Assembly (NCBI GenBank): GCA_049724395.1
Contig: JAUGWO010000048.1
Span: 62,001-126,000, forward strand
Direction of reading: 5' to 3'
Origin: Spongospora subterranea f. sp. subterranea
Taxonomy: Eukaryota
Length of the DNA stretch: 64,000 nucleotides
Part shown: positions 33,824 through 33,988 of the stretch, piece after piece
Numbering within the stretch: position 1 is the first letter of the stretch
Layout of the letters: each line of letters starts with the position of its first letter
Notes under the pieces: model-generated
Told to the model about the DNA's origin: nothing
The model's database searches: none
Seen by the model: the letters and a program-made list of their open reading frames with translations, nothing else
Program-made: the position numbers and the translations under genes

Positions 33824-33988
33824 CTCGAAAAGGGGCATTTGCAACACCTGAAGAACTGTATCTGAACCTTCACATTGAGTATGGTGCAGATTGGGATGAT
33901 TGTGTCATCACGTTATCCCAAACTGCACCATATTCCATGTACAGGCTGAGATACAGCTCTTCGGGAGTGCCAAATGCCCCTTTTCGAG
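33824..33988. repeat. Almost loop-less hairpin made of two diverged coding paralogues
   Basis: + arm RKGAFATPEELYLNLHIEYGADWDD; - arm RKGAFGTPEELYLSLYMEYGAVWDN. Confidence 0.92.

Follow-up and report, generated by a model that had tools for sequence, protein, structure and literature searches.

The hairpin at 33824..33988 of the window (the whole 64,000-nt stretch of DNA analysed here) is real, and the locus that carries it reads as a plus-strand copy of a dispersed gene in which ~147 nt of C-terminal coding sequence, inverted, stand in place of about 10 nt before the stop codon. The two arms diverged as protein-coding sequence, and our comparisons support their being paralogous, apparently from different lineages of the family. 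We give an even chance to an explanation in which an ancestral copy acquired, through a local template switch, an inverted piece of ~150 nt of its C-terminal coding region, and the left arm was later exchanged with that of a hairpin-free sister copy. Mutations of this kind are known, and the hairpin is a variant of them that calls for no new joining mechanism and no function. If it arose in this way, it would illustrate how stems of paralogous coding DNA can be built by fold-back insertion combined with exchange between copies of a repeat. More is at stake in the gene family to which it belongs, which is undescribed. The features of the locus, from left to right, are:

33807..33820, plus strand: putative codon remnant V(M)-A-R-R-V of the host copy, matched by eye to the loose end of a high-depth contig behind 34041 and to the far end of the insert
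33824..33897, plus strand: left arm, codons R-K-G-A-F...W-D from near the C-terminus of the family gene in its host copy
33898..33914, plus strand: loop of 17 nt, in-frame continuation of the host ORF (D-C-V-I-T-L), from the alignment of protein P0001 to 33912 and from contig loose ends
33915..33917: probable left junction, with a 3-nt microhomology (ATC) between native ORF end and insert, placed by eye on the loose ends before 34071 (runs X1 and X2) and 33915 (X4)
33915..34064, minus strand: inverted insert of about 150 nt, C-terminal coding sequence (P-R-R-L-K-L...W-D) with one in-frame stop, from tblastn
34065..34400, plus strand: native 3' non-coding flank of the family, from contig collinearity, its initial TAG aligned with the stop codon of a paralogue

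The arms (33824-33897 on the plus strand and 33915-33988 on the minus strand) are identical at 62/74 bases without gaps. The hairpin matches itself at E 2.7e-33 in self-BLAST, and its predicted fold has a z of -9.2, with equally stable folds in 0/200 shuffles. The sequence-only reading that described it was thus right about its existence, while the loop, which it put at almost zero, measures 17 nt. Sampled words of the window were found at 97% and 92% in two DNA runs from different studies (X1 and X2), and each run has one contig that covers 33740-34300 with no gap and no mismatch. The join, for which verification in raw reads had been proposed, is accordingly spanned in two studies by assembled contigs and not by raw reads; X1 may be the source of the window, and X2 is a second study. 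No RNA run was listed as covering 33500-34400, which has no bearing on expression. On the plus strand a stop-free frame of 82 codons (33823-34071) runs from the left arm through the entire inverted insert.

The 24 codons of the stem carry 12 differences, distributed 1/3/8 over the three codon positions, and six codons are changed purely synonymously (NG86 dS 0.64, dN 0.096, dN/dS 0.15; Fisher p 0.003). The proposal that the arms diverged under protein selection therefore stands, with mismatches that depend on codon position. Its six synonymous codons are confirmed; its totals of 14 differences and nine at third positions count in a 25th codon, situated in the loop, where the stem alone has 12 and eight. 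The three young hairpin segments with more than 1-2 changes gave no signal of selection, in contrast to the 0.15 found here: two have ratios of 0.74 and 0.91, and the third, the 35-kb pair, has 0 synonymous and 2 replacement changes. When two mid-ORF copies of the family were compared, dN/dS was 0.14 in one segment and 1.26 in the other, so the synonymous bias is not uniform between copies.

We compared the arms with paralogues in 20 contigs from 4 runs, at a likeness of at least 80%. Over 33822-33867 the left arm differs at 3/46 bases from a contig with no inverted piece listed (X2 record 8), as against 9/46 between the right and left arms over the same 46 bases, and by hand count at least six of the nine left-specific letters are common to that contig. 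The left arm is thus closer to this contig than to the right arm, which supports the view that two paralogues are involved; the arms are not each other's closest relatives, as far as a comparison of only 46 bases goes. Of the two outcomes named in advance as refuting, namely arms that are closest relatives with mismatches independent of position and a junction that nothing spans, neither was observed. Another contig with the same upstream loose end (X6 record 15) has 7 differing letters and 2 gaps over 33821-33897. The best relative of the right arm and insert is the high-depth contig, with 19/127 differences over 33915-34041 (by hand count, 9 of the 12 listed are at third positions), and none closer than 85% was found among the contigs compared. 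The expectation that each arm would have a closer match elsewhere is thus borne out in the case of the left arm only. Over arm positions 0-42, the left arm, the right arm and the high-depth contig are about equidistant (7, 7 and 9 differences); one replacement site groups the left arm with the contig, two adjacent sites group the right arm with it, and the arms share four letters against it (three listed sites and one loose-end letter). The word depth of this contig (2022 versus 47.8 in X1, 413 versus 24.3 in X2) reflects a collapsed repeat and is not a copy number. A contig related to 33915-34041 has a word depth of 7980 in X6 (guessed to be RNA) versus 12.8 in X4, which provides no ranking of expression.

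The family gene encodes about 500 aa, and the arms are its last 25-35 codons. P0001 matches both arms with its C-terminus (E 5e-14 and 2e-7), its tblastn match to the insert running from 34058 to 33903 (E 5e-14). The claimed join at the homologous codon is not confirmed. Six further codons of the left copy (D-C-V-I-T-L, to 33915) follow in frame, and they line up with the final residues of full-length relatives as well as with loose ends in paralogous contigs. That both arms stop near one codon reflects the end of the ORF there. Behind the insert the sequence is collinear with that found 3' of the ORF end in records 2 and 3 of X1 and records 8 and 10 of X2, and 34310-34396 is also present in record 22 of X3. 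In three paralogous contig types, parts of 34071-34300 follow the ORF end on one and the same strand, and no inverted piece is listed for them. The high-depth contig carries 33915-34041 in sense and, 60 letters on, 34181-34220 on the plus strand of the window; the second type has the putative last ORF codons and the stop immediately before 34071-34300; and the third (X2 record 8) has 33822-33867 and then 34223-34287 on the same strand, the intervening 213 letters lying outside the comparison. Since the inverted piece has two limits (about 33918-34064) and the host 3' flank resumes behind it, the locus represents an insertion into one copy, not a tail-to-tail fusion of two. The junctions were placed by eye on loose ends of 30 letters, which gives the right junction a microhomology of TAGA (34065-34068). 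About 60 nt appear to have been deleted between the remnant at 33807..33820 and the codons S-R-K-G, and the visible stem has 74 nt because of this later loss upstream of the left arm.

It had been suggested that the right arm continues into an intron (GTGAGC...AACAG, about 34115-34208), and hence that the template was DNA or unspliced RNA. This segment lies inside the normal 3' flank of the family, which is oriented like the left arm. The minus strand of 34071-34300 has no similarity to the family protein above that of shuffles, so the argument about the template falls with the intron. Three other readings of the flanks were discarded. Upstream coding sequence plus intron on the minus strand of 34068-34300 scored at or within the range of shuffles for 3/3 proteins. 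A gag gene in the right flank, homologous to the left flank, scored 70 versus a shuffle mean of 56 and maximum of 80.5. A hairpin in the high-depth contig itself was rejected, since 34181-34400 is normal 3' flank. Extension of the left copy to 33741 gave scores of 29-34 versus shuffle maxima of 31-36.

In the explanation we prefer, the polymerase would have exited near 33917, taken the W-D codons 17 nt upstream as its new start, copied from there in the reverse direction and returned at the stop codon, about 10 nt beyond the point of exit; in the four-point model this is the order 3-2-1-4. The hairpin-bearing form would then itself have been copied, leaving a relic at 22.7 kb, and recombination or gene conversion with a sister copy that lacks the hairpin would have exchanged the left part of the 34-kb locus. 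Decay of the locus would have followed, through the 60-nt deletion, a stop and a further fold-back at 34.4-35.5 kb. The relic (22516-22741) has a right junction identical to that of the 34-kb locus (28/36 alike in the part of the insert, 43/49, 85/93 and 44/50 in the flank), which suggests that the insert is older than the 34-kb locus. It is because this junction is common to both that we favour a local switch with later exchange over a single switch onto a sister copy, from which it is not separable on present data. In the first six codons of the two inserts, 4/5 differences are synonymous; such an excess is unexpected for neutral decay unless the arms were re-homogenised, and counts against this order of events.

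As far as the available text of PMC5453318 describes them, short-range template switches of type 3-2-1-4 share with the hairpin an insert that is the reverse complement of upstream sequence, a short spacer, a return near the exit and a new inverted repeat, and need little homology at the switch points; with the mirror case they make up 31% of the high-confidence human-chimp events in that text. At our locus the insert is the reverse complement of the sequence just upstream, homologous to it and 84% alike, and the loose ends of paralogues place the return at about 34065, some 10 nt beyond the exit. The fragment of ~150 nt is longer than the typical events described there, and the arms are 16% diverged, synonymously biased and apparently of different lineages. 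A switch of this type should leave arms that are identical at first and remain closest relatives, contrary to the short comparison above (3/46 versus 9/46), and a later exchange would explain that. Fold-back inverted duplications at short imperfect inverted repeats, in the portion of PMC10622511 concerned with them, have spacers of 6-35 nt, which accommodates the 17 nt here, and are likewise primed through a few paired bases; there, however, the duplications are long, with arms perfect at birth, whereas here the return comes after ~150 nt.

One alternative, to which we allow a modest chance, is a one-step ectopic switch during replication or repair, in which the nascent strand copies ~150 nt backwards from a paired family copy and returns. 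This would produce paralogous arms in one event, would fit the synonymous bias both between the arms and between the 22.7-kb and 34-kb inserts, and would not want for templates, many diverged ones being present. The right junction, however, would have to arise twice, or be inherited with a later change, to account for the 22.7-kb copy; no close donor of the right arm is seen (best 85%); and a start so near the exit, at 17 nt, is the outcome expected from a local switch. We consider it improbable that the hairpin is a plain, old self fold-back with no exchange, in which selection held on the host arm for some time while the insert drifted, chance accounting for part of the synonymous excess. 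If selection acted on the host arm alone, at least 7 synonymous changes of 12 would occur with p 0.05-0.11, and the four letters that the arms share against the high-depth contig also speak for such a history. Against it, the left arm has a nearer relative than the right arm in a contig without a listed inverted piece and with a native-looking ORF end, and fully neutral divergence of both arms has p 0.008. The joining originally envisaged, of two family copies tail to tail in register through a heteroduplex that was end-joined or copied around its end, is in our opinion very unlikely: the arms do look paralogous, and neither stops more than six codons short of the ORF end, but the joining is contradicted by the 17-nt offset, by the limited length of the inverted part (~150 nt) and by the native flank that resumes behind it, which is what had been taken for the intron. 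A chimera of assembly or amplification, inverted chimeras being a known artefact, we practically dismiss: the evidence consists of contigs and not raw reads, but the same sequence with 0 other letters is present in contigs of two studies seven years apart, and the arms are 16% diverged.

Fold-backs are frequent in the window. We found 13 clusters of inverted repeats with gaps of up to 1 kb (6728/64000 bases, mostly broken repeat-like ORFs), and block shuffles of the window gave 0 such clusters in 5/5 cases, which suggests a genome prone to fold-back insertions. Arms within the clusters are 84-100% alike, with 13/14 aligned pairs other than ours at 88-100%. Three of the 13 belong to the present gene family, others to a copia relic (RVT_2) and to unrelated broken ORFs. 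Within 20299-20540, perfect arms of 90 nt with a 43-nt loop (20299-20521) lie at the start of a broken 293-aa frame, and the sequence rejoins behind the hairpin through a short repeat of 20360-20378. The broken frame looks hAT-like; Pfam gave no support for hAT in it. A second small palindrome (20542-20608) follows. The copia relic (58899-60444; RVT_2 E 2.5e-50) contains nested fold-backs at 58899-60079, 59010-59317 and 60146-60444, and one member of a repeat pair (21430-21580 and 30777-30923), the 21.5-kb copy, contains a small hairpin.

Pieces of the family lie at four places in the window. Besides those of the hairpin locus, the following were recognized:

22340..22745, minus strand: another 3'-end copy, comprising 56-bp repeats, the 3' flank and the final ~40 nt of the insert, from sequence alignment
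22841..23416, plus strand: frameshifted middle of the family ORF
25462..25919, minus strand: frameshifted middle of another copy
26550..27216: 5'-end hairpin (96% alike), with exon 1 from 27199 (minus strand), a GTAAGT donor near 27070 and the start of exon 2, the intron site matching that of locus L002
34402..35500: second inverted repeat of the family, a mid-ORF fragment with 56-bp tandem repeats, arms 94% alike, spacer 117 nt

Other parts of P0001 match 22.8-23.4 kb, 25.5-25.9 kb and, weakly, 34.7 kb, and the N-terminus of the relatives matches the hairpin at 26.5-27.2 kb. A complete locus (L002) has a single ORF (1208-2848) with a 57-nt GT-AG intron (1335-1391) near its start; the ORF lies between tandem arrays (476-957 and 2885-3220) of 45-bp and 81-bp units that contain a palindromic core, and in the window the family pieces are adjoined by 56-bp arrays. 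Dispersed copies, as expected of a transposable element, are seen in the pieces at four places in the window and in several diverged contigs, and we read the family as a probable mobile element of a eukaryotic microbe. The frame at 22780-23259 (160 aa) matched 3 hypothetical proteins among 1.84 billion representatives, and 8 clusters after later searches. The arm peptide alone found no protein relative and none in metagenome contigs, apart from one weak viral match of 23 residues (L001). Searches with the family alignment were negative in viral contigs, and their best E values were 0.6 among phages and 0.12 among PDB sequences.

Motif order and neighbours in the ESM Atlas hint that the family protein may be a rolling-circle initiator like Rep_trans and gpII, which we treat as a lead and not as a membership. 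The candidate motifs occur in the order D-x-D-F, T-[VI]-x-D-x-G, G-S-L-[EQ]-F, Y-P-E-A-A-R and G-Y-R-x-E-Y-R; the patterns were chosen by eye and are conserved in the 5 proteins scanned (the N' motif in the 3 that reach it). Their order is that given for Rep_trans (PF02486) in the available part of PMC5714925, and their spacing is 39/18/56 residues versus about 38/16/48 in M13 gpII (Phage_CRI, PF05144). Compared with the motifs in that part, however, motif I of the family has no Arg and motif III is Y-x-E-x-x-R instead of Y-x-K-x-x-E. The family also differs in its spliceosomal-type intron, in its eukaryotic gene surroundings and in having no Pfam match, PF02486 and PF05144 being absent from 6/6 members of the alignment at E up to 5. 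In the text available of PMC13107129, Rep_trans is presented as bacterial, with an archaeal relative.

In the ESM Atlas, a feature search with protein P0005 placed 27/30 matches in the 'replication protein' set (0.94, 174 shared) and included one Rep_trans cluster (0.93); the two top rows were RdRP clusters (0.95 and 0.94), so the search is not specific. By structure, 6/10 rows for P0005 were assigned to clusters of family Rep_trans or Phage_CRI, all below the naming bar and from a model with pLDDT 0.35, and the 160-aa ORF of the window had no usable match. Our own models of the family protein have mean pLDDT 42 and 50. Fold searches with these low-confidence models returned no match at E 0.001 and listed no Rep_trans chain, which is no evidence against the fold; the best matches (Z 5.3 and 4.3) were unrelated helical or ferredoxin-like chains. 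Profile-profile comparison (hhalign) gave no signal, and the pair used as its positive control, gpII and RepC, gave none either. In the first model, the C-terminus that forms the hairpin is a helix, three strands and a helix (pLDDT about 70-80), and is perhaps a DNA-binding domain.

A bolder and, in our view, doubtful possibility is that the gene encodes the transposase of an undescribed class of eukaryotic rolling-circle transposons, with a nickase of Rep_trans/gpII type (TBP-fold) and not HUH, whose single-stranded DNA intermediates would fold back and switch between sister copies; the hairpin would be a fossil of this. If true, an intron-bearing, repeat-flanked, multi-copy eukaryotic gene of the Rep_trans superfamily would add a class of transposons. 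No description of a eukaryotic element of Rep_trans type was found in the full-text literature searched, most subscription papers and Repbase being outside this scope. As portrayed in the accessible text of PMC10288648, Replitrons and Helitrons are similarly multi-copy, have a single intron-bearing ORF and were first seen as hypothetical proteins; they encode HUH endonucleases, and Replitrons have short terminal direct repeats, whereas our family has 45-81-bp tandem arrays beside the ORF and no Pfam match to an HUH family. Replitron-1 is, in the same text, also without a Pfam match.

Next to the hairpin locus, and head to head with it, the minus strand of 32410-33800 contains a decayed Ty3/Gypsy-like relic (RVT_1 E 0.0013), and a contig related to this relic has 1388 extra letters between 33504 and 33538. 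A second relic, gag-like and protease-like, occupies 30790-32430. Near-perfect tandem arrays flank the locus, of 49 bp at 31335-31582 and of 26 bp at 35625-35852. Among the ORFs at 9281-10012, 10938-12221, 16027-16722, 45606-46139 and 51602-52090 there is a cyclic-nucleotide-binding domain; we take these five to be host genes, presumably including ankyrin-like secreted-looking, proline-rich and chitinase-like proteins and an eIF4A-like exon.
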